Of a stretch of 64,000 nt of DNA, positions 25,993 to 42,300 are shown in pieces (within the stretch, counting starts at the first letter, position 1; each line of letters opens with the position of its first letter). The notes under the pieces were generated by a model, which was not told where the DNA came from, made no database searches, and saw nothing but the letters and a program-made list of their open reading frames with translations. The DNA comes from an uncultured Fimbriimonadaceae bacterium (GTDB taxonomy: Bacteria; Armatimonadota; UBA10988), in the NCBI GenBank assembly GCA_964405335.1, contig CAYONP010000020.1:2069-66068 (forward strand), in the 5' to 3' direction. Both the position numbers and the translations under genes were made by a program.

Positions 25993-26057
25993 ATAGGGAC
26001 GCCGGTCCGAACGTCTAGCCATAGAGCCGGATGCGGGCGGGGTGGCGGGAGGTGGCG

Positions 26058-26720
26058 ATGCGAGGCTGGTGGCCGCTCGCGTTGATCTGTGTCGGCTTGA
26101 CGGCGAGGGCGCTCGAGTCCGAAACCACGTGGTATCAGCCGGCGTTGGCCTACGAGGCCATCCCGTACGGACCCGAGTTCCGCTTCCAGGCCGAGTTCGG
26201 CGACGAGGTCGACCGCAACGCCTTCGTCCGGCACGTGCTCTCCCGGCACCTCGGTAACATCACCGACCAGCAGTTCGACATGATGAGCCTGCTCGCGCCC
26301 GAGGATGGGCTGATGGGCTTCCTCGCCCGCGGCACCAAGCTCGGCCTGGTCACCGGCTCGGCTGGCTATGTGCTCGGTGTGCTGACCGACGCCGCCGATC
26401 CGGGAACCATCGGCGCGGTCACGCTGGCCGGCGGGTTCTTCGCCGGCGCGCTGGGCTATGCCGACGGACCGTCATCGTTCACCCTCCGCTGCGGCGAGTC
26501 GAGCGCCTGCCGGCTGGTGCTCGGTTGGCAAGAGAAGCCCGGCTATCTGCCCCGCGCGGTGCCCGGCTTCGCCGGCAGCGGCGTCAACGGCAGTTTCACC
26601 GCCGGCGCCAGCCTGACCTTCGGCGGGCTCGACGGCGGGCCGGCTGCAGCGCTCTTCTGGGACCCGTTCGCCGCCGGTCGTTCGAGCCTCGGCGGGCTGT
26701 CGCTGACCGCCTCGTTCTAG
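26058..26720 (+). CDS. secreted Gly-rich hypothetical protein
   Basis: Signal peptide MRGWWPLALICVGLTARA at an internal start. Gly/Ala-rich C-terminal half. No family recognised. Confidence 0.45.
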   Translation: MRGWWPLALICVGLTARALESETTWYQPALAYEAIPYGPEFRFQAEFGDEVDRNAFVRHVLSRHLGNITDQQFDMMSLLAPEDGLMGFLARGTKLGLVTGSAGYVLGVLTDAADPGTIGAVTLAGGFFAGALGYADGPSSFTLRCGESSACRLVLGWQEKPGYLPRAVPGFAGSGVNGSFTAGASLTFGGLDGGPAAALFWDPFAAGRSSLGGLSLTASF

Positions 26721-27553
26721 CCGGGCGGCGGGACCAGTGCCTCGGCCAGCGGCCGGGCGGTGTCGACGTAGAAGACGTACTTGATCCAGTAGCTCCGCGC
26801 ATCCTTGGCCGGGTGCAGGCCGACCTTGTGCAGCCCCCCGTCGCGCGGGATGCGCAGGCTGAAGCCGAAGCTCTCGCCCCGCTTGACCGCAACGTTGCCG
26901 ACCAGCTCGGAGTCGACCGCCAGGTAGACACGGCCGGTCTCGCGCAGCAGCCGGGCACGGCCCCAAACCACCCAGTCATTGCCGCGCTGTTCGAGGGCGA
27001 CGTTGTGGAAGTCGTAGTAGTGGACGCCGAACACCTGGGTGGCCATGTGCGTGCCGCCGCGACTGAACACCCCGACGCCGAGGTGGGTGTACTGCGGGTC
27101 GAGGATGTTGGCCCGGTGTGGCGGCGAGTTCATCCAGCCGTCGCGTGAGTACATGAACCAGCGGGCCAGCTCCTCGGTCGCCATGCCGCCGCCGCCGAGC
27201 CGCACGAAGGCGATGTTCTCGGCCACGAACGCCTCCCAATAGCCGGCCCGCCAGGCGCGCTGGCCGGGTTCGCGCCAGGCGTCGTGCGGCGCGTCGTGGG
27301 CGAAGTAGTCTTCGAGCACCATCTCGCGGCTGTGCTGCCGCGCGGCGACCTGCAGCGAGGCCAGCGGCCGCAGCTCGGGGATGTCGCGCCGTCGCCGCTC
27401 GTCGTTGACCATCTCGAGAATGCGCTGTTCGACCGCCGGGGTGCCGGGGTGCTCATCCTCGCTCCAGAGCGGCCGGAGGAAGACGCGGTTCGGCTCCTGC
27501 GCGGCAGCGGGCAGGGCGGCGAGCAGAAGCAGCAGGATACGGGCCCAGGACAT
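26717..27553 (-). CDS. secreted CAP (SCP/PR-1-like) domain protein
   Basis: Signal peptide MSWARILLLLLAALPAAAQ. CAP motifs HSREMV...YFAH and GHY-like HTHLGVGV. Confidence 0.7.
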   Translation of the reverse strand: MSWARILLLLLAALPAAAQEPNRVFLRPLWSEDEHPGTPAVEQRILEMVNDERRRRDIPELRPLASLQVAARQHSREMVLEDYFAHDAPHDAWREPGQRAWRAGYWEAFVAENIAFVRLGGGGMATEELARWFMYSRDGWMNSPPHRANILDPQYTHLGVGVFSRGGTHMATQVFGVHYYDFHNVALEQRGNDWVVWGRARLLRETGRVYLAVDSELVGNVAVKRGESFGFSLRIPRDGGLHKVGLHPAKDARSYWIKYVFYVDTARPLAEALVPPPG

Positions 27554-27662
27554 GGCGTCGCCTCTCACGGGCTGGATCATAACCTGAGACGCGTCGCCGC
27601 GCACCGAGGTGCTGAACGGGCATTGAACGGCCGCAGATGCTCCTGAACCGCCTGCCGAGCGG

Positions 27663-27691
27663 TTGACGACCGGCCGGTCGGGCGCTATTCT
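27663..27691 (+). promoter_or_regulatory. candidate sigma70-like promoter upstream of aspartokinase (weak)
   Basis: TTGACG, 17-nt spacer, TATTCT, ending ~25 nt upstream of the GTG start at 27716. Confidence 0.3.
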
Positions 27692-27715
27692 GCCGGCGCG
27701 GACGCGGCGTGAACG

Positions 27716-29038
27716 GTGACTGAGCGTTGGGTGTGCAAGTTCGGCGGCACGTCGGTGGCCGACGCCACGCGCGTCGACCAGGTGCGGCGGATTCTGGCCG
27801 CCGACCCGCGCCGCTCGGTGGTCGTGGTCTCGGCTCCCGGCAAGCGCAGCGACGAAGACCAGAAGATCACCGACCTGCTGCTCATCGCCAAGCGGCTGGC
27901 CGCCGCCGAGCTGAGCTTCGACGCGCCGCTGCGGGTGATCGCCGAGCGGTTCGACGAACTCGCCGCCGACCTCGACGTGCCCGACCTGGCGGGCCCGCTG
28001 ATCGATGAGCTATGCCAAGGGCTGAACAACGGGCAGGGCGAGGACTGGGTCGCCAGCCGCGGTGAGGCGATGTGCGCGCGAATCGTCTCGGCGGCCTTGG
28101 AGGCGACCTACATCGAGCCGTACGAGACGCTCGGCATCGACGCCACCGGGCGGCCCACGCCGGACAGCTACGAGCGCCTGGCGCTGGCCGTCGCCGACGA
28201 GCCGTTGGCGGTGGTGCCCGGCTTCTATGGCCGCGGGCCGACCGGTGAGGTGAAGGTCTTCACCCGCGGCGGCAGCGACATCACCGGCGCCGTGGTGGCC
28301 CGCGCCATCGGCGCCACGGTGTACGAGAACTGGACCGACGTGTCGGGCCTGATGATGGCCGATCCGAAGCTGGTGCCGCAAGCCAAGCCGATGCGCGAGG
28401 TGACCTACGACGAGCTGCGCGAGCTCAGCTACATGGGCGCCCGCGTGCTGCACGAAGAGGCGGTGCTGCCGGTCCGTGGCGTCGGCATCCCGATCCACAT
28501 CCGCAACAGCCTGCGGCCCGACGACCCCGGCACGATGATTGTGCCCGACCGCGACCCGCGCCGGCAGCCGGTGATCGGCGTCGCCGGCGAGGCCTGCTTC
28601 ACCGCCGTGCATGTCTACAAGACGCTGATGAACCGCGAGCGCGGGTTCGGCCGGCGGCTGCTGGGCATCATCGAAAGCCACGGGATCAGCTTCGAGCACA
28701 GCCCCACCGGCATCGACTCGATGTCGGTCGTGCTGCGCGACGACGAGCTGGGCCACAAGATCGATCTGGTGGTCACTGAGATCCAGCGCGTGCTGCAGCC
28801 CGAGCGGATCGAGGTCCACAGCGGCCTGGCGATGATCGCCCTGGTCGGCCTGGGCATGGCCCACCAGGTCGGCATCAGCGCGCGGCTGTTCGGCGCGCTG
28901 GGCGCCGCGGGGGTTAATGTGCAGCTAATCTCGCAGGGCATCTCTGAGCTGAGCATCATCGTCGGTGTGGCCAAGGCCGATTTCGCCGCCGCGGTGCGGG
29001 CGATCTACGCGGCCTTCGCCGAGCTTGGGGAGGGCTGA
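27716..29038 (+). CDS. aspartate kinase
   Basis: 440 aa. KFGGTSVA N-terminal kinase motif, VVVVSAPG, C-terminal ACT domains. GTG start. Confidence 0.9.
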   Translation: MTERWVCKFGGTSVADATRVDQVRRILAADPRRSVVVVSAPGKRSDEDQKITDLLLIAKRLAAAELSFDAPLRVIAERFDELAADLDVPDLAGPLIDELCQGLNNGQGEDWVASRGEAMCARIVSAALEATYIEPYETLGIDATGRPTPDSYERLALAVADEPLAVVPGFYGRGPTGEVKVFTRGGSDITGAVVARAIGATVYENWTDVSGLMMADPKLVPQAKPMREVTYDELRELSYMGARVLHEEAVLPVRGVGIPIHIRNSLRPDDPGTMIVPDRDPRRQPVIGVAGEACFTAVHVYKTLMNRERGFGRRLLGIIESHGISFEHSPTGIDSMSVVLRDDELGHKIDLVVTEIQRVLQPERIEVHSGLAMIALVGLGMAHQVGISARLFGALGAAGVNVQLISQGISELSIIVGVAKADFAAAVRAIYAAFAELGEG

Positions 29039-30054
29039 TGCGCTGGATCGAGTTCCCCGACCCACGGCTCGCCGTCTTCGGCCTGCCCTGGTTCGCCGAG
29101 AACTCGCCCGACCTGTTCCGCCTGCCCAAGTCGCGCCAGGCCCGCTACCGCGAGGCTGTCTGGCACCTGGCCAAGTCGCCGGCCGGGGGGCGCATCCGGT
29201 TTGTCACCGACGCCAACGAGCTACGCATCCGGCTCGACTACGGCGACGTCGGGCACATGAACAACATGCACCGGATCGGCCAGCACGCCGTCGACTGCTA
29301 CGCCGACGGCGTCTTCTGGCGCAACGCCGCGCCGGCCGAGGAGGGGCAGAGCGAACTCGAAACGACGCTCTACTCGGGCGTCGGCACGGCGACACGGGCG
29401 ATCGACCTCTACCTGCCGCTCTACCACCACGTTCGCGTGGTCGCGGTCGGGCTCTCCGACAACGCACTGATCTCCCCCGCTCCACCCTTCGCCCACCCTC
29501 TGCCGGTGGTCTTCTATGGCTCCAGCATCACCCAGGGCGGCTGCGCCAGCCACAGCGGGAACAGCTACCAGGGCATCCTCTGCCGCGACTTGAACCTCGA
29601 TCAGGTCAACCTCGGCTTCAGCGGCAACGGGCTGGGCGAACCCGAGCTGGCCGAGGCGATGGCCGACATCGAGGCGTCGGCCTATGTCGTCGACTACTCG
29701 CAGAACTGCCCCACCGTCGAGCAGATGGCCGAGACCTACGGCCCGTTCCTGCGCATCCTGCGCGAGGCGCGGCGCGACACGCCGATTCTCTGCCTCACGC
29801 CCATCAGCGCCGCGCCCGAGGCCTGGTCGGCCACCACGCGCGAGACCCTCGAGGCCAAGCGCGAGGTGGTTCGGCGCGCAGTGATCATGCGCCACCAAGC
29901 CGGCGACCAGCGGGTCCAGGTGATCGAGGGACCGGCGCTGCTCGGGCCCGACCAGATGGACGGCATCGTCGACGCGAGCCACCCCAACGACCTCGGCTTC
30001 TGGCACATGGCCAATGGGTTGAAGCGCCCACTCGCCGGAGCGCTCGGGCTCTAG
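29038..30054 (+). CDS. SGNH/GDSL-family hydrolase (esterase)
   Basis: Block I GDS-like (VVFYGSSITQGG) and block V DASHPND (Asp-x-x-His). The ATG overlaps the aspartokinase stop. Confidence 0.7.
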   Translation: MRWIEFPDPRLAVFGLPWFAENSPDLFRLPKSRQARYREAVWHLAKSPAGGRIRFVTDANELRIRLDYGDVGHMNNMHRIGQHAVDCYADGVFWRNAAPAEEGQSELETTLYSGVGTATRAIDLYLPLYHHVRVVAVGLSDNALISPAPPFAHPLPVVFYGSSITQGGCASHSGNSYQGILCRDLNLDQVNLGFSGNGLGEPELAEAMADIEASAYVVDYSQNCPTVEQMAETYGPFLRILREARRDTPILCLTPISAAPEAWSATTRETLEAKREVVRRAVIMRHQAGDQRVQVIEGPALLGPDQMDGIVDASHPNDLGFWHMANGLKRPLAGALGL

Positions 30055-30066
30055 CCGAGGTGCCGC

Positions 30067-31068
30067 ATGACCCCCCGCGAGCGATTCGAGGCGGCAATCG
30101 CCGGCCGGCCGGTCGACCGCCTGCCCTGCCATCCGCTGACCATGACCTTCGCCAGCCGGCTGATCGGCCGGCCCTACCGCGACTATGTCCACGACCACCG
30201 CGTGTTGGCCGCCGGTCAGCTCGCCGTCGCCGAGACCTTCGGCATCGACTTCGTCTCGGTGATCAGCGATCCGTGCCGCGAAGTCGACGACCTGGGCGGC
30301 GAGTGCACCTACTTCGACGACGAGGCCCCGGCCTGCGACAGCCGCCGCGCCCTGCTGGCCGAGAAGACCGACCTCGCTCGCCTGCAGCCGCCCGACCCGC
30401 TGGGAGGCGGGCGGATGCATGACCGCGTGAACGGCGTGGCGCTGCTGCGCGAGCGCGTTGGGCCCGACTTCCCGGTCCTCGGCTGGGTCGAAGGGCCGAT
30501 CGCCCTGGCCGTCGACCTGCGCGGGATGCAGGCGCTGATGCTCGACACCGTCGACGACCCCGAGTTCGTGCGCGACCTGTTCGCCTTCGCCGTCGACCTC
30601 GAGATCGAGTTCGCCCGCGCGCAGGTCGCTGCCGGGGCCGACTCCATCGGCATCGGCGATGCCGCCGCGTCGCTGGTCGGCCAGACGTTCTACGAGCGCT
30701 ACGTGCTGCCCGAGGAGCGGCGGCTGGTCGACGCGATCCACTCCCTCGACGCGGCGGTGCGACTGCACATCTGCGGCAACACCTCGCACCTGTTCGCCGG
30801 CATTGCCACCCTCGGCTGTGAGCTGGTCGACATCGACTACACCGCCGACCTGGCCGCCGCCCGCGCGTCGATGCCGACCACCGCGCTGCTGGGCAACCTC
30901 GAGCCGGCCCGTTACCTGCTCCGCGGCACGCCCGACGAGGTGACGGCCAAACTGGCCGAGTGCCACGCGGTCGCCGGCGATCGGTTCGTTGTCGGCGCCG
31001 GCTGCGAGGTGCCGAAGTTCAGCCCGCACGAGAACGTGCGGGCGATGGTCCGGTACGCGGCGGCCTAG
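30067..31068 (+). CDS. uroporphyrinogen decarboxylase (URO-D) family protein (MtaA/CmuA-like)
   Basis: 333 aa. URO-D fold conservation (PLTMTFASRLIG; VRLHICGN). Confidence 0.75.
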   Translation: MTPRERFEAAIAGRPVDRLPCHPLTMTFASRLIGRPYRDYVHDHRVLAAGQLAVAETFGIDFVSVISDPCREVDDLGGECTYFDDEAPACDSRRALLAEKTDLARLQPPDPLGGGRMHDRVNGVALLRERVGPDFPVLGWVEGPIALAVDLRGMQALMLDTVDDPEFVRDLFAFAVDLEIEFARAQVAAGADSIGIGDAAASLVGQTFYERYVLPEERRLVDAIHSLDAAVRLHICGNTSHLFAGIATLGCELVDIDYTADLAAARASMPTTALLGNLEPARYLLRGTPDEVTAKLAECHAVAGDRFVVGAGCEVPKFSPHENVRAMVRYAAA

Positions 31069-31225
31069 GCGAGGATGTCCCGCCAAGACGACCTGCTGGC
31101 GGGGGTCGGCGTGTGCCAAGAGTGACCTCGGGGAATTGGTGAGCTACCTCGGTCCGCCCGGGTTGCGCAGCCGGCGCCCTCGCCGCGGGCCAGGTTGAGG
31201 GCCAGCACGCGAGCCACCGAGCAGC

Positions 31226-32065
31226 TCAGCCATCTGCGGCGTCCAGGTCTGCTATCAACCCCGGCCCTGAACCCGCGCGCAGCTCCCGCAACAAGTCTTG
31301 CGCAACCATATCAACCCGGACATCACCATCATGCCCCGTCCTCCTAGCCAGAAACTCCAACGGCCGGATCAAGCTCGAGATCGCTCCAGCGAGCTCCTCG
31401 TCAGGCCCGCCGCTCCGCGCGACCCGAGCCAGTAGGCCGATACCGACTAGCAAATCCATCCACGCCGGATGCCCCGACCAACCCGCCAACGCACGGTCGC
31501 GCGGGGATCTCCGCGACAGCGCGAGTATCTCTTCAAGCAAATCACGGTCTGTCCTGCGCGCACTCGCCCCGCCCCTGCCACCCACCGCGAGCGCCTCGTT
31601 AACTTGCTTCAGTAGCTTGGGCCACCACATGTCGAACACAGGTTCCAACACCTCCGGCGGCAAAGCAGCATCTGCCAGTTCGTTATTGATCATCTTGACG
31701 ACGCGCCTCATCTCCTCTTCCGAGAATCTCGCGGCCTGAAACTGCACCAAGGGGCCCGTAACATCCGCGGGCTGCATACCTTCAAAAAGGAGAGGGCAGA
31801 CCTTGGCTTGATCCACACTCTTGGCAAGGGCACCCGCCTCGAACAATAGCCAAGGAGCGTTATGACTCTCCGTCGTAATAACCAGTAGACCAACACAACT
31901 CGCCTCAAGCTCATTCGCGATCTCCGTAGACCAACGTGATCCCTTCGCGACGTCATCTGGACTGAAATAGGGGCGGACAGCCTGAAGCACGCTAGGCAAC
32001 CACTGCCGGAGTACATCCGCCACCGCCCGGCTTCGCTCACCAGACCAGCTGATGAAGACTCTCAT
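31226..32065 (-). CDS. TIR-domain protein (putative NADase; ThsB-like) with C-terminal alpha-helical extension
   Basis: Start at internal ATG (MRVFISWSGERS) with GGAGAAAG Shine-Dalgarno 7 nt upstream. FISWSG..., SRWSTEIANELE (W-x3-E putative catalytic Glu) and LLVITTES are canonical TIR blocks. The C-terminal ~140 aa are helical and uncharacterised. Confidence 0.85.
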   Translation of the reverse strand: MRVFISWSGERSRAVADVLRQWLPSVLQAVRPYFSPDDVAKGSRWSTEIANELEASCVGLLVITTESHNAPWLLFEAGALAKSVDQAKVCPLLFEGMQPADVTGPLVQFQAARFSEEEMRRVVKMINNELADAALPPEVLEPVFDMWWPKLLKQVNEALAVGGRGGASARRTDRDLLEEILALSRRSPRDRALAGWSGHPAWMDLLVGIGLLARVARSGGPDEELAGAISSLIRPLEFLARRTGHDGDVRVDMVAQDLLRELRAGSGPGLIADLDAADG

Positions 32066-32154
32066 ATCTTTCTCCCCGCATGTCGCCTGTTGCTCTGTAC
32101 AGACGACCCACGGCACTGTCGCTTCATGAGCGAAGCTGCGGCGTCGGGCCTCTT

Positions 32155-33123
32155 TTATGTGAGAATCTGTTGGAGGATTACCATCGCAGCTGCTCGGATC
32201 TGTTCTGACTGGTGGTCCAGCACCCTGAACTTCTCCGGCCAGTTAGGATCCTGCGGCGCCTTAAGTTCCCGCCAGTATAACTTCAGGACTCTCTCAGTTC
32301 GCTCGACCTGCTGCATCGCGCCGGCCAGGTCGCCGCGCCCGATGGGCTCATCCGTTATCTCGCCAAGGTCGACCTTCTTCATGGTGCGCATTGGGCGCAC
32401 ACCTTGCATGCCCTGAAGGAGGATCACGATCGTCTGCTCGTAACCATACCAACGCTGACTAACCAATGCGGTCTTTAGGTAGTCGTGACCGATCGCAAAG
32501 AACTCGGACCTAGGCTTGTCAGTGATCTTGCGCAGGCCCTGAGCCTCAGCTGGAAACCAGTTATAGAGCAAGCCGTATGTGCCGTATGTGTCAATTAGCT
32601 GCTTTGCGCTGTTGAGCGGCACCGTGATTTCGCCGATGCAGAATTCTGCTTCGCCGGAATATACGGCGTCCGGGATTTGTTCGAATGTGTCCAGCACGCG
32701 TGTTCCGGCACTGCCCGCGTAATCGAAATCTCCAGGGATGAGCCAGTAGACGTCATAGACAGTAGTGCGCTGGTCAAAAGCATATCCGAGTCCATGCAGC
32801 CACATCTGACAGGTGTCCACGCTCCAGGCATGGAGCACAGTGGACTGTTGCTCCACCTCAGTTGACATTAAACGTAGAAAGGTAGGGTTCTGTGAGTTGC
32901 GATGGAAGGTCTGCCGATTCACAACGGTTATTGGACGCGCATAGCGCGAGGGAGCTGCAGCTAGTTTCGTGATGAGGTTGGCATACAACGCCTTAAGATG
33001 CCGGTCATCACGTGGTTGACTGAAAGGGTAAATGACAATCGGGTGGATTCTCCTGCTCTGGGGTGTTGACGCATCCCCGCTTGGAGCTGCCAGGGTGTCT
33101 GGTTGAGTCGTTGAGTTCGGCAT
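32155..33123 (-). CDS. hypothetical protein, TIR-operon partner (no recognisable family; predicted alpha/beta Rossmann-like)
   Basis: 322-aa ORF 86 bp upstream of the TIR gene on the same strand. Lowest GC in the window. Alternating buried beta-strand-like segments (IVIYPF, ITVVN, VYWLIPGDFDYAGSAG, TIVILLQG). Confidence 0.6.
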   Translation of the reverse strand: MPNSTTQPDTLAAPSGDASTPQSRRIHPIVIYPFSQPRDDRHLKALYANLITKLAAAPSRYARPITVVNRQTFHRNSQNPTFLRLMSTEVEQQSTVLHAWSVDTCQMWLHGLGYAFDQRTTVYDVYWLIPGDFDYAGSAGTRVLDTFEQIPDAVYSGEAEFCIGEITVPLNSAKQLIDTYGTYGLLYNWFPAEAQGLRKITDKPRSEFFAIGHDYLKTALVSQRWYGYEQTIVILLQGMQGVRPMRTMKKVDLGEITDEPIGRGDLAGAMQQVERTERVLKLYWRELKAPQDPNWPEKFRVLDHQSEQIRAAAMVILQQILT

Positions 33124-33720
33124 ATGCTCCAGTCGCTCCCAAACCGCGGTTGCCGTTCACGCCGCCAGGCAAGCGCGGCCCAGCAGATCCTGTTCGCCCT
33201 CTACCCCTTTTGGGTAGCGTACCGTCTTGGGAAGGCGCTGTCAATGGACGTTGTGGCGTCCTCCTGGCCTGAAGTTGGCGGCTTGCGAGTAGCAGCCTCT
33301 GGTCGCACCTGACGCCACGCTGCAAGTTGATTGATGGCTGGATACAGTGGCCCGCCCTTTCCAGCTACGCCAGGTGGACGAACAGCACCTCTCCGCACTG
33401 CCGGTGCTCCGTCGTTGACGGCGGACTGTTGGATACCTCTGGTTCGCCCGTGCCTGGCGCGCCGGCGAGTCCTCGCAGACCGCTAGCGACATCCGCGCAT
33501 GCGCCTGTTTGGCGAGATTGAGGACTGACAGGTCAACCTGGCCGCGCGCGTCGCGCACCTGCCAACGCTGCTCAGCGGCAGGGCCGGCAGTCGCTCGGCG
33601 GCTTGCCTGGCGGCTGAACCGGAAACGGCTGGCTGTGAGTGCGCGCAGCAGGACGCCCATCGCGCTGTGCGTGGGAAGCGGCGGACGAGGTTCTGCCCTT
33701 CGCCCGGCGTATAGCCCGCC

Positions 33721-35619
33721 ATGACCGCACGGGTCGTGCTGCTGGGTCTGGTGTTGGTGCCGCTGCAGGCGTTCTGGACCGTCCACATGGAGCTGGTCCG
33801 CGACGGCATCTTCCCCTCGGTGCTCAGCCTGCTGTTCACCGTCGTCTTCCTGCTCTTCGTCGTCTGCCTGGCCAACCTGGCGGTGCGCCGCGTGGCTCCG
33901 CGGCTGGCGCTGCGCGGCGACGAACTGCTGGCGCTCTACATTGTGCTGGCCGCCGGAGCCAGCCTGACCGGCTGCGACGTCGGCCAGACGCTGGTCCACC
34001 TCGTCGGCGCGCCGTACCGCCTGGCCACGCCCGAGAACGCTTGGTCACTGCACTTCCACCGCTACCTGCCGAGCTTTCTGCACCTCGACGACGCGGCCGT
34101 GCTGGAGGGCTTCTACGAGGGCGCCAGCTCGTTCTATCAGTGGCGCATCACGCGGTTCTGGCTCGGGCCGATCGCCAACTGGATGATCTTCTGCGGCCTG
34201 ATGCTGCTGGCCATGCTGGCGACCAATGTGCTGGTCCGCCGGCAGTGGGTCGAGCACGAGCGGCTGACCTTCCCGATTGTCCAGGTGCCGCTCGGCATGA
34301 CCCTGCAGCCCGGCTTCTGGAGCCACCGCGGGCTCTGGTGGGGCTTCGCCGTCGCGGCGTCGATCGACCTGGTCAACGGCCTCAACGCGCTCGTCCCGTG
34401 GGTGCCGCGGATTCCGTGCAAGCAGTTCATCTTGCTCGGCACCCTGACCAGCAGCAAGCCCTGGACCGCGGTCGGCTGGTGGCCGGTGACGGCCTATCCG
34501 TTCGCCATGGGGATCGGCTTCTTGATGCCGCTGGAGATGAACTTCTCATGCTGGTTCGGCCTGCTGCTGTGGAAGGCGCAGAAGGTCGTCGCGATGCAGC
34601 TCGGCGTCGACACCGGCTGGCTGCAGGCGCTGTACCAGGCCGAGCAGGTCAGCGGCGTCTGGCTGGCGGTGCTGCTCTTCGCCGCCTGGAGCGGCCGGCA
34701 CCACTGGCGCGCGATGTGGCATGGCCTGTGGCGCGGCGAGACCGCCGCCGCGCGGGTCGAGCCGTTCGGCGTGCGGACCTGGGCGGCGCTGGCGGTGGTC
34801 GGCTGGGCGGGGATGATCGTCTTCGGCGCGCGGTCGGGGATGAGCGCCGGCTTCGCCGCCGCCTACTTCACCGTCTACCTCGGCTTTTCGCTGGCGCTGA
34901 CGCGGATGCGGGCAGAGTTCGGCCCGCCCTGCCACGACCTGTTCGGCGCCGGGCCCGACCGGACCTTCATCACCTGGCTCGGCGGCCGCGGCATCGCGCC
35001 GCGCAACCTGGCCTCGACGGCGGTGTTCTACTGGCTCAGCCGCGAATCGCCGCGCAGCCACCCGATGCCACCCCAGCTCGAGAGCCTGTTCCTCGCCTCG
35101 GGCGGCCGGCTCAGCCTGGCTCGCGTCGCGCCGGCCATCTGGCTGTTCGGCTGCCTCAGCGCGCTGGTCACCTTCTGGGCGGTGCTCCACTTCGGCTACG
35201 ACCTGGGCAGCCAGGCCAAGTTCCGCGGCCCGGCCACCTGGTTTGCCAGTGAGGGCTTCAACCGCCTCGACGCCTGGCTGGTCAGCCCGCCCGAGCCGCA
35301 GGCCGGGCCGCGCATCGCCATGGTCGCCGCCTTCGTGCTCAGCCTGCTCTGCCTGGTGCTACGCACGCGCTGGCTCGGCTTCGGCTTCCACCCCGCCGGC
35401 TACGCCATCTCGAGCTGGTGGGCCATCAACCTGCTCTGGTTCCCGCTGCTGATTGCCTGGGCGACCAAGCTGGTCATCTTCCGGTACTTCGGCGGCCGCG
35501 CCTACCGCCACGCCCGGTGGTTCTTCATCGGCCTGATTCTCGGCGAGTTCGTGGTCGGGTCGCTGTGGCAGCTCGCCGCGATGATCTGGCGGACGACGAC
35601 GTACGCGTTTTGGATCTGA
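33721..35619 (+). CDS. large polytopic membrane protein (Trp-rich; possible glycosyltransferase-C-fold or transporter-like), unknown function
   Basis: 632 aa with more than 12 hydrophobic helices. Confidence 0.6.
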
Positions 35620-35671
35620 GCGGCGAGAAGGAGCGCCGCCCGACGCGGCGAACCGACGTTCGCGCGAGGAG

Positions 35672-36655
35672 ATGGTCATGGCCAAGGTGGTGGGTGAGCC
35701 GTTGCCGAACATCCCGTGGGAGGATCGGCCGGCCGGCTCGAGCGAGGTCTGTTGGCGCTACAGCGGTAATCCGGTCATCCCGCGCGATGCTATTCCCTGC
35801 GCCAACAGCATCTTCAACAGCGCGGTGGTGCCCTATCTGGGCGCGTTTGCCGGCGTCTTTCGGATCGATGACCGCGCGCGGCGGATGCAGCTCCACGCCG
35901 GCCGCAGCGCCGATGGCCTGCACTGGGAGCTGGCGCCGGAGCCGATCCAGTTCATCGCCGACGATCCCGACATCGGGCGGTTCGAATACGGCTACGACCC
36001 GCGGGTGGTCTGGCTCGAAGACCGTTACTACGTGACTTGGTGCAACGGCTATCACGGACCGACCATCGGCGCGGCCTACACGCACGACTTCGCCTCGTTC
36101 TACCAGCTCGAGAACGCGACCGTGCCGTACAACCGCAACGGGGTGCTGTTTCCGCGGCGGATCGGCGGCAGCTTCGCCATGCTGCACCGCCCGAGCGACC
36201 GCGGCCACACGCCGTTCGGCGACATCTTCTACAGCGAGAGCCCCGACTTCGTGCACTGGGGCCGTCACCGGCATGTGATGAGCCCCGCGGGCGGCTGGGA
36301 GTCGACCAAGATCGGCGCCGGGCCGATTCCCATCGAGACCGACGAGGGCTGGCTGCTGATCTACCACGGCGTGCTGACGAGCTGCAACGGCTATGTCTAT
36401 AGCGCCGGTGTGGCGCTGCTCGACCTCGAACAGCCCTGGCGGGTGATCGGCCGCGGGAGGTACTACATCCTGAACCCGAGCACGTACTACGAGTGCGTCG
36501 GCGATGTGCCGAACGTCGCCTTCCCCTGCGCCGCGCTGTGCGACGCGCCGAGCGGCCGGCTGGCGATCTACTACGGCGCCGCCGACACCGTTGTGGCGCT
36601 CGCCTTCGCCTACGTCGACGAGCTGATCGACCACCTACGGCGGTACCCGCGCTAA
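35672..36655 (+). CDS. GH130-family glycoside phosphorylase/hydrolase (beta-mannoside phosphorylase-like)
   Basis: 327 aa. GH130/DUF377 five-bladed propeller hallmarks ([42 protein letters not shown]). Confidence 0.8.
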
Positions 36656-36657
36656 CC

Positions 36658-39342
36658 GTGCGCACCGTTGTTCTGGCCGACGCACCCAGACTGGCCTTGC
36701 CGGCCGACTGTGACGACTTCCGCGTGGTCACGCCGAATGCGCAGGCGGCGCGGGCGCTCGGGGTGCCGAAGTGCGACTTCCGCACGCTGGCCGTGGCGGT
36801 GCTGCGCGGCCGGGGCATCCGCTTGGCACCAGAGCCGGCGGCCCACCGCGCTCTCCGGCGGGCCGTGGCCAAGGTAGGCTTCGCGAGCCCGGAGCGCTTC
36901 GCCGCCGTGCTGGAGCCGTCGCTCAAACGCGTGATGCGCAGCGGTGCCGGCCTCACCGTGCTGCTCCAACACGGCGGCCGGGCGGCGCGCCTGGCCGAGG
37001 TGATCGGGGTCTACCGCGAGAAGCTCGGCGACAAGCTGATCGACGAGGCCGACGCGCTGCACCGCGCCGCTGAACACCCGCCTGAGCAGGCGCGGATGCT
37101 GGTCTATGGCTATCCACGCCTGGACACCGACGAGCTGGCCCTGCTCGACGCCGTCGCCGGCGACGGCAGCCTGCTCATCCTGCCCGGCGGCGAGGCGGCG
37201 CTGTTCGACGAGAGCCGGCAGATCGCCGAGGCGCTGGCGCAGCGTGGCTGGCAGGTCGAGCGCGCGACGGCCCGCGGCGAAACGGTCGGCGACCGGCTGG
37301 CGGCGCGGTACCTCGGCGGGCAAATCGAAGTCGCGGTGACCGGCCACGGATACCCCGACGACGAGGCCGAGGTGCGCGGGGTGCTGGCGCAGGTCAAGCG
37401 TCGCCTGCGCGACGGCGTGGCGCCGAGCGACATCGTGCTGATCGCGCGCGATGAGCGGCACTACGAGCCGATCGTGACCGCGGTGGCCGAGGAGTATGGC
37501 CTGCGCGTGCGGCCGGGCTATCGGCGCCCGTTGACCGAGACGCGGCTCGGCGGCTGGCTGGCCCTGCTGCTCGAGGCGCTGGCCGAGGGCCGGCCGTTCG
37601 AGCCGACGCTGCGCCTCTACGGCTCCGGCCTGCTCGACGACGTCGAGCCGGAGCAGCTTGCCGACCCGCGCCGCGAGCGGGCGGTCGGCGCGCGGTGGGA
37701 CGCCTACGCGCTACCGGTCATCGTGCCGTTGGGCGGCCTGCCCGACCAGCAGTCGATGCCGAGCTGGACCGCCTGGCTGCGCGGGCTGATTGAGTCGCTC
37801 GACCTGCGCGGGCGCCTGGCCGCCTGGCCGCGCGAGTTGTACGCGCTCGCGTTGCTGCTCGACGGCCTCGGGTACCTGGGCGACGCCGGCGCCGTTCCGG
37901 CCCGGTGGTTTGCCGCCGAGGTGCTCGACCTGCTCGGCGCGCTGACCGTCGAGTCGGCGCCGGGTCGCGGCGGGGTGGAGCTGCACACGCCGTTGGCGGT
38001 CTACGGCGCGACGATCCCGCACCTCTTCATCCTCGGCGCGGTCGAGGGCCGACTGCCGGCGGCGGTCGACGATGACCCGTACCTGGACTTCCACCTGCGC
38101 GAAGCGCTGGCCCGGCGCGGGGTGCCGCTCGAGCTGGCCGCCGACGCGGCGCGACGCGAGGAGCTGTCGCTCCACACCCTGCTCCTGACGGCCGCCGGCG
38201 AGGTGGTCATCTCGGTGCCGCGCAGCATCGGCGGGGCCGCGGTCCTGCCCAGCCCGCTGGTCGAGCGGCTGGGCCTGAGCCTCGTCGCGCCGCCGGTGAT
38301 TCACGCCGCACCGCGCGAGGTGCTCCGAGCCGACCTGGCCGCCGCGACGGGACCGATCGCCGAGCAGGCGCGGCGCGCGGCAAGGGTCGAGCTGCGCCGG
38401 GAGTCGTCGCAGGCGCATGACCATCACGACGGCCGGCTCGGCCGGGCGGTTGACCCGCCGGGTGCGTTCAGCATCACGCAGTTGACCGCGTTGGGGCAGT
38501 GTCCGTTCAAGTGGTTTACCGAGCGGCGCCTGGGCCTGGCCGAGGCCGAAGAGGGCCTGGCCGAGCCCGACGCGCGACTGACCGGCAGCCTGGCGCACCG
38601 CGCCCTGGAGCTGGCCGGCCGGGCCGCGGCGGCCGCCGGCGCGGCGGACGAGCGGGATGTCTGGGTCTACTACCTCCCCCACGCTCTCGACCTGGCCGCC
38701 GGCCAGGCGGGTGAGTCGGCGGCGGCGCGCGAGGTGCTCGACGTCGCGGGCGAGCCCGAGCCCGACGCCGATGAGCCGGAGCTGCACCAACTCGGCCGGC
38801 TCAGCCACTGGCCGCTGCTGCGGCAGGAGTGGCTCGAGGTGCTGACACGCGCGGTCGAGGTCGACTCCTTCTGGTCGGCCGGCGTGCCGACCGAGTTCGA
38901 GTGCCGCTTCGATGAGGACTGGCACGGGCTGCGCCTGCGCGGCGTGATTGACCGCATCGACCTGCTCGACAACGGCGGCGCGGTGCTGTTCGACTACAAA
39001 ACCCGCAGCGGCACCGACCGGCCAACCGGCGTGCAGGACGAGACGGGCAAGGCGCGGCTCGACCTGCAACTCACCGCTTACGCCGAGATCTACGCCGAGC
39101 TGAGCGGCGAGCCGGCGGTCGACGCCCACTATCTCAATCTGCGCTCCGCCCAGCGGGCGAAGGACCCGAGCGAGGCGTCGCGGGTCGACGGGGCAGCCTT
39201 CGCCGGCGAGGTCATCGAGCGCTTCGGCGCCGGCGACTTCGCCGTCGAGCCCGACGGCGCCCGCGAGGCCTGCCGTTACTGCGACCTAACCCTAGTCTGC
39301 CGGATCGGCCCGCGGCTGGAGCGGAAGCGAGGGGCGGAATGA
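36658..39342 (+). CDS. AddB-like helicase-nuclease subunit (inactivated helicase plus PD-(D/E)XK nuclease with Fe-S Cys cluster)
   Basis: GTG start 2 nt after the GH130 stop. C-terminal RecB-family nuclease (VIDRIDLL...LFDYKTRSG...QLTAYAEIY) and CRYCDLTLVC. AddA follows with a 4-bp overlap. Confidence 0.7.
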   Translation: MRTVVLADAPRLALPADCDDFRVVTPNAQAARALGVPKCDFRTLAVAVLRGRGIRLAPEPAAHRALRRAVAKVGFASPERFAAVLEPSLKRVMRSGAGLTVLLQHGGRAARLAEVIGVYREKLGDKLIDEADALHRAAEHPPEQARMLVYGYPRLDTDELALLDAVAGDGSLLILPGGEAALFDESRQIAEALAQRGWQVERATARGETVGDRLAARYLGGQIEVAVTGHGYPDDEAEVRGVLAQVKRRLRDGVAPSDIVLIARDERHYEPIVTAVAEEYGLRVRPGYRRPLTETRLGGWLALLLEALAEGRPFEPTLRLYGSGLLDDVEPEQLADPRRERAVGARWDAYALPVIVPLGGLPDQQSMPSWTAWLRGLIESLDLRGRLAAWPRELYALALLLDGLGYLGDAGAVPARWFAAEVLDLLGALTVESAPGRGGVELHTPLAVYGATIPHLFILGAVEGRLPAAVDDDPYLDFHLREALARRGVPLELAADAARREELSLHTLLLTAAGEVVISVPRSIGGAAVLPSPLVERLGLSLVAPPVIHAAPREVLRADLAAATGPIAEQARRAARVELRRESSQAHDHHDGRLGRAVDPPGAFSITQLTALGQCPFKWFTERRLGLAEAEEGLAEPDARLTGSLAHRALELAGRAAAAAGAADERDVWVYYLPHALDLAAGQAGESAAAREVLDVAGEPEPDADEPELHQLGRLSHWPLLRQEWLEVLTRAVEVDSFWSAGVPTEFECRFDEDWHGLRLRGVIDRIDLLDNGGAVLFDYKTRSGTDRPTGVQDETGKARLDLQLTAYAEIYAELSGEPAVDAHYLNLRSAQRAKDPSEASRVDGAAFAGEVIERFGAGDFAVEPDGAREACRYCDLTLVCRIGPRLERKRGAE

Positions 39343-42300
39343 GGCTCACGCCAAACCCCGAGCAGCAGGCGGCGGCGAGCCATCCCTCCAGCCTGGCGGT
39401 GACCGCCAGCGCCGGCACCGGCAAGACCGCGATGCTGGTCGAGCGTTACCTGCACCATCTGCTGGCCGGCGGTCTGAGGCCGCTGCAGGTGGTCGCCGCG
39501 ACGTTCACCGAGAAAGCCGCGGGCGAACTGCGCGAACGGGTGAGGAAGCGCCTGCGCGAGGAGTTGGGTAGCGCCGACCCGCGGCTGGCCGAGCTCGATG
39601 CCGCGCCGATCGGCACGCTGCACAGCCTGGCCGCGCGGATCTGCCGCGAGCATCCCGAGGCGGCCGAGGTCGCGCCGGGGTTCGTCATCCTCGACGAGAC
39701 CGAGGCACCGATCTGGTCGCGCCAGCGGGTCGATGAGCTGCTGACCCGCCTGCCGCCCGAGCGGTTCGCCGGCCTGCGCTGGAGCCTGGCTCGCGCGGCG
39801 GTGCACCGGCTGCTGGACGAGCCCTTCGTGGCGGCGCAGGCGCTGGAGCGGGTGACTCGTCCGTGGGCCGAGGTGCGCGCCGAGTGGGCAACCTGGGCCG
39901 CGGCCGAGCGCGAGGCCGGCCTGGCCGAGCTGACCGCGCCGCCGTGGGACGAGACGGTCGGCTTTCTGCGCAGTGTCCGCGGCGCTTCAGACGACGGCGC
40001 CGAGATCGCCCGCCAGACCATCCTCGACGGCGTCGAGCTCTTCGAGGCGGGTGAGTTGCGGCCCGGCTTGGAGCTGATGGCTTCGGCCGACCTGCGCTAC
40101 GGTCGCAAGGCGGCCTGGCGGTGCGACCTGGCCGAGGTGAAGGCGGCCCTGAAACTGCTCTGCGAGCGGGCCCGCAAAGCACGCAAGGACGGCCGCGCAA
40201 CGGCCGAGGTGACCGACCTCGACGAGCATCACCACAGCCTGCTGCAGCGCTTGCGCGGGTTGGTCGAGACAGTCGGCGGCGGCCTGAGCGAGCTGAAGCG
40301 CCAAGCCGGCCTGCTCGGCTACGCCGACCTCGAGACCGGCGCGCTACTGGCGCTCGGGCGCGAGGATGTGCGCCGCTGGTATGCCGAGCGGTGGCAGGCG
40401 ATTCTGGTCGACGAGGCGCAGGACGTCAACCCGACCCAGGCCGAGCTGCTGCGCCGGCTGCGCGATCTCGAGCCGGCGCCGACGCTGACCGCGGTCGGCG
40501 ACGTGAAGCAGTCGATCTACGGCTTCCGCCACGCGCGGCCGGAGGAGTTCGAGGCGCTCGGGCACGCACTCGGCGCGCCGCACCGGCTGAGCCGCACCTA
40601 CCGCCAGCACCGCCCGCTGGCCGAGACGCTCAACGCCCTATTCGCGCCGGTTCTGGGTGAGCAGCACGCGCCCGTGGAGTCCGAGCGTGAACCGCCGCAC
40701 CCCGGCCGCTACGTCGAGCTCGCCGTGGTGGCCGAAAAGGCCTCGGCCGCGACCGGCCGTCAGGCCGAGGCGGCTTATCTGGCTGCGCGACTGACCCAGT
40801 GGCTCGGCCAACTGCCGGTCCACGACCGGCAGGCCGACTGCGTCCGGCCGCTCGAGCCGCGTGACGTGGCCGTGCTCTCGCGCGCCTGGCAGCCGCTCGA
40901 TCTGTTCGCCGACGCCTTCGCCGCGGCGGGCATTCCGGTGGTCCACCACGGCGGCGGCAGTCTGCTCGCCACGCGCGAGGCGCTCGACGGCATCGCACTG
41001 CTGCGCACGCTGTGCGATCCGGGCGACCGGCTCGCGCTGGCGGCTGTGCTGCGCGGGCCGATGTGTGCCGTCGATGACGTTGCCCTCGACGACTTGGCCC
41101 GGCCCGGCGACCAGCCCTGGCCGAAGCGTCTCGACGGCATTGCCGCGGCCGCCTGGCTCGCCGAGCTGCGCAAGATGGCCCGGTGTGAACCGCCGTCGCG
41201 GCTGCTCGAGCGGGCCGACGAGCTGACCGGCTACAGCGCGGTGCTGGCCAATCTGCCGCTGGCCGAGCGGCGGCTGGCCGACTGGCGCGGCTTCATCGCC
41301 GCCGTGCGCGAGGCCGAACGGGGGCACCTAGACCTGTTCGCCATCGTGCGCTGGCTCCGCCAGTTGCTGGAGGCCGGCGTCGAGCTGCCGCGGCCGTCGC
41401 TCGAGGCGCACGACGCGGTCAGCCTGGCGACCATCCACTTCGCCAAGGGGCTCGAGTGGCCGGTGGTGATCGTGCCCGACCTGTCGCGCCAATCGCGAGG
41501 CAACGACCCGCGTCTGCGGCTCGACGCGGCGCGCGGCGTGGCGCTCGACCTGCCGCTGCCCGACGATCAGCCGCAGCCGTTCCTGACCTGGCTGCTGAAA
41601 GCGAACGACAAGCAGCGCGAGGCCGATGAGCTGAAGCGGCTGGCCTACGTCGCACTGACCCGCGCCCGCGACCGGCTGCTGCTCACCGCCGGCCGCACGA
41701 GCGGCGGCAGCTCGCTGCTTGAGCTGCTCTCCGAGCCGCTGGCCGCCGCCGGTGTCACCGCCGACGCCATCCCCTTCGACCCGGCCGCGCCGCTGCCCGA
41801 GCCGACGGTCAAGCCGACGACTGGCCCGGCACCCGAAGCGGTGCTGCTGGAGCGGCTGCAGACGGGCCTCGACGAGGTGGTCGCCTCGGCGCTCGACCTC
41901 TACGAGCGCTGTCCGCGCCGGTTCTGGTACGACCAGGTCGAAGGCCATCCCGGCCTGCCGGTCGACGGCGAGGGTGGTGAGGCGCGGCGCATCGGCATCC
42001 TGGTCCATCACGCCCTCGAGCACGGTCTGCGCTCCGGCGCGGAGTTGCGCCTGCAGGATGCGGCGATCTCCGACGACGGCCTCCAGCACGCGCTGGCGCT
42101 GCTGGCGAGTTGGGATCAACACTCGGCCTTCGCCGCCGTCCGCGAGGCCGCCGCCGAGCCGGAGGTCGAGCAGGTCGGCGAGCTGCACGGCGTGCGGCTG
42201 ACGGCGCGGATCGACCGCCTCGCCGGCGAGTTCGTGCTCGACTACAAGACCGGTCAGACGGCCGTTGCCGAGACGCACGACCTTCAGCTCTGGGCCTATG

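Follow-up and report, generated by a model that had tools for sequence, protein, structure and literature searches.

Among enzymes of solved structure, those that most resemble the protein described here are three retaining glycosyl-glycerate synthases: mannosylglycerate synthase (MGS; CAZy family GT78; PDB 2bo4 and 2y4j-2y4m), glucosyl-3-phosphoglycerate synthase (GpgS; GT81; 7p5l), and mannosyl-3-phosphoglycerate synthase (MpgS; GT55; 3f1y and 2wvk). Amino acid identity to them is very low (7-11% for MGS, 8-13% for GpgS and MpgS), and our protein has 322 residues against the 397 of MGS; in addition, its family is accompanied by a 2H-like domain or a CBM48 protein, whereas GpgS and MpgS are accompanied by a HAD or a histidine phosphatase. 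The GT2 polyprenyl-phosphate glycosyltransferases, for example dolichyl-phosphate mannose synthase (DPMS; 5mlz), ArnC (8vxh and 9b77), and GtrB (5ekp), carry membrane helices and the GT2 signature (Glycos_transf_2), and the 322-aa protein has neither. A second set of described systems invites comparison through a neighboring TIR gene: Thoeris ThsA (SIR2/SLOG or Macro), and the cyclases found with a TIR effector in CBASS and Pycsar. Here the likeness is one of gene order, and only in the window (the whole stretch of 64,000 nucleotides analyzed); unlike these known TIR partners, the 322-aa protein contains no SIR2, SLOG, Macro, cyclase, or CD-NTase domain or fold. The preliminary description of this DNA had likewise seen no transmembrane segment and no cyclase, SIR2, SLOG, or Macro motif by eye, and on these points the two analyses agree.

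The gene lies on the minus strand at 32155..33123 and is complete, running from an ATG to a stop codon with a GGAG sequence 5 nt ahead of the ATG. The public record enters it as a 237-aa truncation (P0016), but conservation among homologs runs from residue 26 onward, so the 322-aa form is the correct one. Its G+C content is 0.550 overall and 0.638 at third codon positions (GC3), compared with 0.704 for the window as a whole and with a GC3 of 0.90-0.96 in six neighboring host genes; the minimum of all 969-bp windows falls at position 32151, and the gene is thus the lowest in G+C of any in the window, as first noted. The impression that it carries no known motif was also borne out: the protein matches nothing in Pfam, NCBIfam, PADLOC, or PHROGs, and searches of PDB by sequence, both with the single sequence and with profiles, returned chance-level matches only.

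A structural assignment was obtained from an AlphaFold2 model built with a 48-sequence alignment (pLDDT 92.3, pTM 0.88). In the model strands and helices alternate and the chain ends in a helical hairpin; the whole is predicted to be a single Rossmann-like alpha/beta/alpha domain with GT-A strand order that can be superposed on solved GT-A enzymes. The structure search that the preliminary description had proposed was run with Foldseek against PDB and gave a probability of 1.0 and a top TM-score of 0.55, the latter to MGS. Structure-comparison scores were 19.5 for MGS itself (2bo4, 247 residues aligned), 18.4 for glucosyl-3-phosphoglycerate synthase 7p5l, 17.3 and 16.3 for the mannosyl-3-phosphoglycerate synthases 3f1y and 2wvk, and 16.7 for dolichyl-phosphate mannose synthase. 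A viral structure library gave generic GT-A matches and nothing else. The protein therefore almost certainly has the GT-A fold, to judge from the predicted model, and the alpha/beta nucleotide-binding fold suspected at the outset can now be given a name.

The fold does not by itself make the protein a glycosyltransferase, and a GT-A-fold enzyme of another kind has to be weighed: a nucleotidyltransferase or pyrophosphorylase, or perhaps an enzyme that turns an NDP-sugar or a nucleotide derivative into a (cyclic) phosphodiester which the 2H protein would then open. The structural comparison bears on this directly. Sugar-phosphate nucleotidyltransferases score 13-14.5 over about 175 residues, whereas the scores of the glycosyltransferases are well above these and their alignments cover 215-247 residues, extending past the nucleotide-binding half of the domain; moreover, as described below, the conserved acidic motifs follow the order and spacing of those in MGS. 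On the other side, neither the canonical second Asp nor the metal-ligand His of such glycosyltransferases is conserved in this family, and the family includes members with a fused or adjacent 2H-like domain, of a superfamily that acts on cyclic phosphodiesters. The glycan chemistry to which the CBM48 partner and the GT2/GT4 genes upstream of some homologs point (see below) is a further argument against an enzyme of this other kind, and we consider it rather unlikely.

The conserved residues can be followed along the model. Residues 1-25 (33049..33123) form a tail whose length and sequence vary across homologs and which is mostly modeled at low confidence; pLDDT falls below 50 only here, at residues 1-3 and 9-18, and the block means for residues 1-20 are 48 and 49. 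This agrees with the disordered N-terminus predicted by the preliminary description, at a length of about 25 residues. Conservation begins with residues 26-34 (IHPIVIYPF; 33022..33048), which comprise strand beta1 (residues 26-31) and a P-F turn with an invariant P33. This segment is apparently the N-terminal nucleotide-binding motif of GT-A enzymes, and in MGS a similar motif reads LVVFPF. Residues 100-108 (WSVDTCQMW; 32800..32826), with D103 and W108 invariant and C105 and Q106 nearly so, follow strand beta3 and seem to occupy the place of the MGS GKGD loop; in MGS this loop (G75-K76-G77-D78) is invariant in 30 homologs, as are G214, K215, and H217, and our family has S-V-D-T-C-Q in place of the loop.

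At the end of strand beta4 (residues 125-130) lie residues 128-134 (LIPGDFD; 32722..32742), in which P130 and D132 are invariant. P130-G-D132 appears to sit where the DxD motif stands in GT-A enzymes, and the window protein reads D132-F-D134 here; other members may have D, E, N, Q, K, or R at position 134, so that the second Asp of DxD, unlike that of MGS, is not conserved. This is also the site of the glycine-rich loop (IPGDFDYAGSAGT) that had been taken as a sign of nucleotide binding. It is no glycine-rich nucleotide loop; only P130, G131, and D132 of it are conserved, and its AGSAGT portion varies freely. The most conserved block of the family is the helical segment of residues 172-191 (SAKQLIDTYGTYGLLYNWFP; 32551..32610), with invariant K174, D178, L185, W189, and F190. 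It is followed by residues 203-209 (KPRSEFF; 32497..32517; R205, E207, and F208 invariant), which by motif order and spacing may correspond to the QPLGGE (E166) region of MGS, and by residues 224-231 (RWYGYEQT; 32431..32454; R224, Y228, E229, Q230, and T231 near-invariant), a candidate equivalent of its DWGIDT (D192) region. Residues 253-258 (LGEITD; 32350..32367) include near-invariant G254 and D258. No His is invariant in the family, either in 48 closer or in 45 diverse members, and so H217, invariant in MGS, has no equivalent here; since an invariant His is lacking, D258 may stand in for this metal ligand, and its collinear spacing makes it a candidate replacement. The C-terminal helical hairpin (residues 266-321; 32161..32328) consists of helices 266-288 and 295-321, has Q272, R275, and W284 as invariant residues, and carries a conserved QQVERTERVLKxxWRE motif. 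Taken together, the conserved polar positions 33, 103, 132, 207, 229, and 258 appear to be collinear with MGS positions 7, 78, 100, 166, 192, and 217. Because the second DxD Asp is not conserved and an invariant metal-binding His is missing, catalysis may differ from that of MGS or be absent.

None of this similarity reaches significance at the level of sequence. With an MGS reference identical to 2bo4_A over residues 1-397 and an alignment of 30 MGS members, hhalign comparisons of the family (close and diverse alignments) with the MGS sequence or alignment gave probabilities of 0.5%, 0.09%, and 0.7%. In the top local profile alignment, residues 28-46 (PIVIYPFSQPRDD...) stand opposite MGS 2-20 (SLVVFPFKHEHPE...); at E 0.079 it is not significant, and it falls on the beta1 P-F turn, which is structurally equivalent in the two. 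A Pfam scan of 48 members at E<=10 yielded noise only and matched neither MGS domain (PF21967 and PF21969), and no glycosyltransferase family model in Pfam or NCBIfam was matched, so significant sequence similarity to GT81 or GT55 is lacking as well. Ten divergent or longer members provide no bridge to any known glycosyltransferase family. As far as profile comparison can tell, then, the protein has no sequence-level membership in GT78 or any other Pfam glycosyltransferase family.

It is nevertheless far from the "orphan" it was first called. A search of 5.8 billion proteins found 1,764 homologs at E<=1e-3, and when a profile was run exhaustively against 1.84 billion representatives at 50% identity, the matches formed 224 clusters at that level; all of the homologs listed are unnamed or annotated as "hypothetical protein," without a Pfam domain in any of them. 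Their hosts are mostly Verrucomicrobiota, with Acidobacteriota, Planctomycetota, Ignavibacteriota, Bacteroidota, and metagenome-assembled genomes of Proteobacteria also represented. Identity averages 51% per column in an alignment of 48 closer members and 25% in one of 45 diverse members, and in the latter 17 columns are invariant (P33, D103, W108, P130, D132, G164, K174, D178, L185, W189, F190, R205, E207, F208, Q272, R275, and W284). By these alignments the GT-A-like family is compact and strongly constrained. A literature search on TIR-TM, on CBM48 and glycosyltransferases of Verrucomicrobia, and on GT-A and 2H domains found nothing on it.

The reading that we prefer, with moderate confidence, is that the gene encodes a soluble, cytoplasmic GT-A-fold glycosyltransferase that was recently acquired by horizontal transfer and belongs to an undescribed family; that the predicted fold is put to true glycosyltransferase chemistry is itself somewhat more probable than otherwise. 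In such an enzyme a nucleotide-activated sugar would be held at the beta1 P-F turn and at the invariant Asp132 after beta4, probably with a divalent metal: the nucleotide would be bound by the P-F turn together with D103, and the diphosphate by D132, possibly with D258 and the metal. Residues 172-231, a large invariant block rich in aromatic and charged side chains, would form the acceptor site, and the sugar would then be passed to an acceptor that is small and soluble or of the glucan type, as for the structural relatives MGS, GpgS, and MpgS. Catalytic roles for D132, E207, E229, and D258 are putative, as are the donor and the acceptor; in view of the nearest structural relatives and of the CBM48 and 2H-like partners, the acceptor is likely to be a small phospho-acid, a sugar-phosphate, or an alpha-glucan.

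Genomic context was examined at 164 homologous loci, 84 from genomes and 80 from metagenomes. The sole widely conserved neighbor is a gene for a ~95-aa protein, a stand-alone module of the glycogen-binding type, that matches Pfam CBM_48 (6.3e-10) and AMPK1_CBM (1e-8), on the same strand and 6-141 bp downstream. Of the 84 genome loci 52 have it, as do, directly downstream, 48 of the 66 metagenome loci with enough downstream sequence; overall, it lies directly downstream in 100 of 150 loci with enough sequence. The pairing is a feature of Verrucomicrobiota, and this concentration in one phylum may mean that it partly reflects shared ancestry. A self-glucosylating primer of the glycogenin type was also considered, prompted by this CBM48 partner.

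The second partner is a ~250-aa domain found in association with the family in some Bacteroidota and Proteobacteria. It is fused to the C-terminus of the GT-like protein in one homolog of 570 aa (P0426), and it is encoded by an adjacent gene at three loci, downstream in L011, where a paralog of the GT-like gene follows it, and upstream in L043 and L045. It has two invariant H-x-T/S motifs and several sub-threshold matches: to 2_5_RNA_ligase2 in three of four members (best E 2.7e-4), to DUF1868 2H-phosphodiest in three of four (best E 0.048), and to an AKAP7-type 2H domain in PDB (E 0.055). The convergence of these matches, with the two motifs, makes it a probable 2H phosphoesterase. A neighboring gene in L008/L087 was tried as a third relative; two H-x-T motifs are present in its product, but similarity to the other members could not be detected, and it was set aside.

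Neither the CBM48 nor the 2H-like partner is present in the window, and both are also absent from the closest relatives of our gene, which are 73-83% identical to it and belong to four other phyla, in Pirellulaceae, Ignavibacteriota, Acidobacteriota, and Thermoanaerobaculia. At three loci (L001, L002, and L006) the GT-like gene lies downstream of glycosyltransferase genes (GT2/GT4); other close relatives lie beside toxin-antitoxin genes or lack a conserved neighbor, and a more distant homolog (53%; L004) lies beside integrase and toxin-antitoxin genes. The identity of 73-83% across phyla, together with the foreign base composition of the gene, indicates that it has been transferred horizontally. 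These same features would suit a stand-alone mobile accessory gene, for instance one that by itself serves a stress or anti-phage role through the glycosylation of some target and has nothing to do with TIR beyond a like existence in variable islands, all the more as family members outside Verrucomicrobiota are often solitary, with long spacers, near toxin-antitoxin, integrase, or Xre-type genes. Yet tblastn found no relative among 50,697 phage records and 72,556 plasmid records, PADLOC does not match the protein, and none of the 10 neighbors scanned is a significant defense gene; the stable CBM48 pairing in about 100 loci looks, moreover, like ordinary metabolism. A purely accessory role of this sort seems quite unlikely.

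In the window the next gene downstream, at 31226..32065 on the minus strand, encodes a 279-aa TIR protein (P0122) that shares a low-GC islet with our gene and is not a conserved partner of it. Its start is the ATG at 32065 rather than the GTG at 32116, since homologs begin at MKVFISWSG. The protein matches TIR_2 (7.8e-9), phrog_13899 (4.5e-68), and the PADLOC TIR-TM profile (5.8e-68; profile positions 1-191 of 293 only). By eye, the hydrophobic stretches of its C-terminal third are all too short for a membrane helix. It has 2,225 homologs, and those listed are mostly ~280-285 aa long and 54-67% identical over 85-100% of its length. At 12 loci, which represent seven different TIR homologs, it is a lone gene with changing neighbors (HicAB, a ParE-like gene, an integrase and a phage capsid gene, HEPN_Swt1, PIN, and a SIR2-TIR fusion), and no relative of the GT-like gene is present at any of the 12 at E<=0.1 (one chance-level alignment has E 0.46). 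As a lone gene among changing neighbors, without a GT-like relative, the TIR protein looks like a self-contained mobile module.

The islet that holds both genes is ~2.2 kb long (31200..33400) and is evident in the G+C profile as well as in GC3. Its 200-bp G+C values are 0.525-0.70, mostly 0.53-0.65, against about 0.70-0.75 in the adjoining DNA, and the GC3 of the TIR gene (0.66) is close to that of the GT-like gene. It contains no tRNA gene, no convincing flanking direct or inverted repeats, and no Rfam match; it is probably horizontally acquired DNA. The two genes are separated by 89 bp, a spacer that includes the TIR gene's own ribosome-binding site (GGGGAG), so each has its own Shine-Dalgarno sequence. 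A scan for promoters and terminators gave background-level results, with no clear terminator predicted between them. The common strand and composition, the 89-bp gap, and the lack of a predicted terminator mean that co-transcription and a local functional link are possible.

The preliminary description had gone further, presenting the protein as a TIR partner and suggesting that it might be a new domain, coupled to TIR, that senses a signal or acts as an effector. In its fullest form this would be a two-gene TIR defense cassette in which the GT-A protein senses phage, or binds or processes a nucleotide made by TIR. Apart from the arrangement just described and the near-equal GC3, which is compatible with co-acquisition, some features of the family would fit. 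The GT-A fold binds NDP-sugars, a class of compound to which products of the ADP-ribose type chemically belong; elsewhere the family is associated with a probable 2H phosphoesterase, and the 2H superfamily includes enzymes that act on ADP-ribose cyclic phosphate; several close homologs, too, lie among toxin-antitoxin and integrase genes. The distribution of the two genes argues otherwise. The co-occurrence check that had been suggested was run with the window TIR protein (tblastn, E<=0.1, over ~4-8 kb or to the contig end), and a TIR relative was found in none of the 164 family loci; with the converse result at the 12 TIR loci, the pairing recurs in 0 of 176 related loci, unlike that of known two-gene TIR systems, and the adjacency is confined to this window. 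One chance-level, sub-threshold TIR fragment was seen in L064, on the opposite strand and about 4.8 kb away. The TIR homologs are full-length, conserved lone genes whose neighbors vary, PADLOC has no significant match for the protein or for 10 neighbors of close homologs (top E 0.005), the recurrent neighbors are CBM48, a carbohydrate-binding module and the dominant one, and the 2H-like domain, and the two Shine-Dalgarno sequences also speak against a cassette. We regard such a cassette as very unlikely.

The GT-like protein is thus, very likely, functionally independent of the TIR gene. The islet is probably a spot tolerant of insertion at which two independently mobile genes, presumably independent in this genome also, were gathered, and it is most likely by chance that both were inserted there side by side; acquisition as a pair is possible and receives no support from the other sampled genomes. 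At the level of both fold and context, what was found is remote resemblance to an enzyme family with non-defense surroundings, an outcome that the preliminary description had itself named as refuting its proposed coupling to TIR. That the GT-A protein and TIR were acquired together as a new TIR system, in which the fold reads or modifies an ADP-ribose-type TIR product, is highly improbable; if it were true, the 2H association would hint that the family handles ADP-ribose or cyclic-phosphate-type nucleotides and not ordinary sugar donors. For the discovery of defense systems the case is a caution, in that adjacency to a TIR gene within a low-GC islet was here no evidence of partnership.

The finding is thus a modest one, and its remaining interest lies in a sizeable GT-A family that cannot be seen by sequence and has two unusual partners, and not in a new TIR system. 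If the assignment as a GT-A-fold glycosyltransferase holds, this would be an unnamed GT-A family of at least 1,764 sequences, invisible to current sequence libraries and a candidate for a new CAZy family. Its members come mostly from Verrucomicrobiota, Acidobacteriota, and Planctomycetota of soils and waters, and the pairings with CBM48 and 2H-like proteins suggest hypotheses for a step in glucan or compatible-solute metabolism in these poorly studied phyla.

The GT-like gene (window 32155–33123, minus strand) is represented in the public NCBI annotation by a 237 aa protein (P0016) that is N-terminally truncated and, owing to the truncation, is missing strand beta1 together with the P-F turn, which is conserved; the full 322 aa form is found in a Logan assembly (P0121). 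Elsewhere in this family of GT-A-fold proteins, a GT-like domain and a 2H-like domain (probable 2H phosphoesterase) are naturally fused in the 570 aa protein P0426. The two also occur as separate genes in a Saprospiraceae MAG (locus L011, 6001–8800), where the order is GT-like, 2H-like, GT-like, all on one strand, and the 2H-like gene is thus flanked by two diverged GT-like paralogues; among the loci sampled, this is the only one with two GT-like copies. Another family member, P0444 (423 aa), has a C-terminal extension that weakly matches the 8xMP membrane-protein family, and members of the latter family are also encoded just upstream of a TIR homologue in loci L165 and L166.

Small proteins are encoded downstream of several GT-like homologues. 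Those that follow close homologues in L001 (9062–9847) and L006 (7137–7610) each have an N-terminal membrane helix and are unrelated to each other; the one in L010 (1896–2432), which follows a more distant homologue (53% identity), has internal hydrophobic stretches. None of the three received a confident Pfam or PADLOC assignment.

On the other side of the GT-like gene in the window, about 600 bp (33124–33720) contain no convincing gene and have no Rfam match. The GC content of this section is intermediate (0.60–0.70), and it carries an imperfect 50 nt inverted repeat whose arms (33125–33174 and 33601–33650) are 70% complementary. Beyond it, 33721–36655 (plus strand) contains the gene for a 632 aa protein that spans the membrane several times and has DUF6785 and DUF6784 domains, followed immediately downstream by a GH130 beta-mannoside phosphorylase-type gene; the two may work as a pair on mannosides, one as transporter and the other as phosphorylase. 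Many long ORFs (100–630 aa) are present in window 26000–40000, including one at 29221–31119 (minus strand), and they share their DNA with annotated-type genes that run on the opposite strand or are read in another frame. Such ORFs are expected because the DNA is 70% GC, and they are probably not genes.

The window TIR protein (31226–32065, minus strand) belongs to a large family of 2,225 homologues, which among the matches listed are mostly ∼280–285 aa long and conserved across nearly their full length. Its match to the PADLOC "TIR-TM" model is restricted to the first 191 of 293 positions; its C-terminal region of ∼130 aa is conserved, and inspection by eye found no hydrophobic stretch of membrane-helix length in the C-terminal third. 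The protein also matches phrog_13899, so phages hold relatives of it. In L177 and L178 (3001–5289), a close homologue is encoded directly upstream of a 440 aa SIR2_2-TIR fusion protein and a PIN toxin pair adjoins these two genes, an arrangement that looks like a small defence island.
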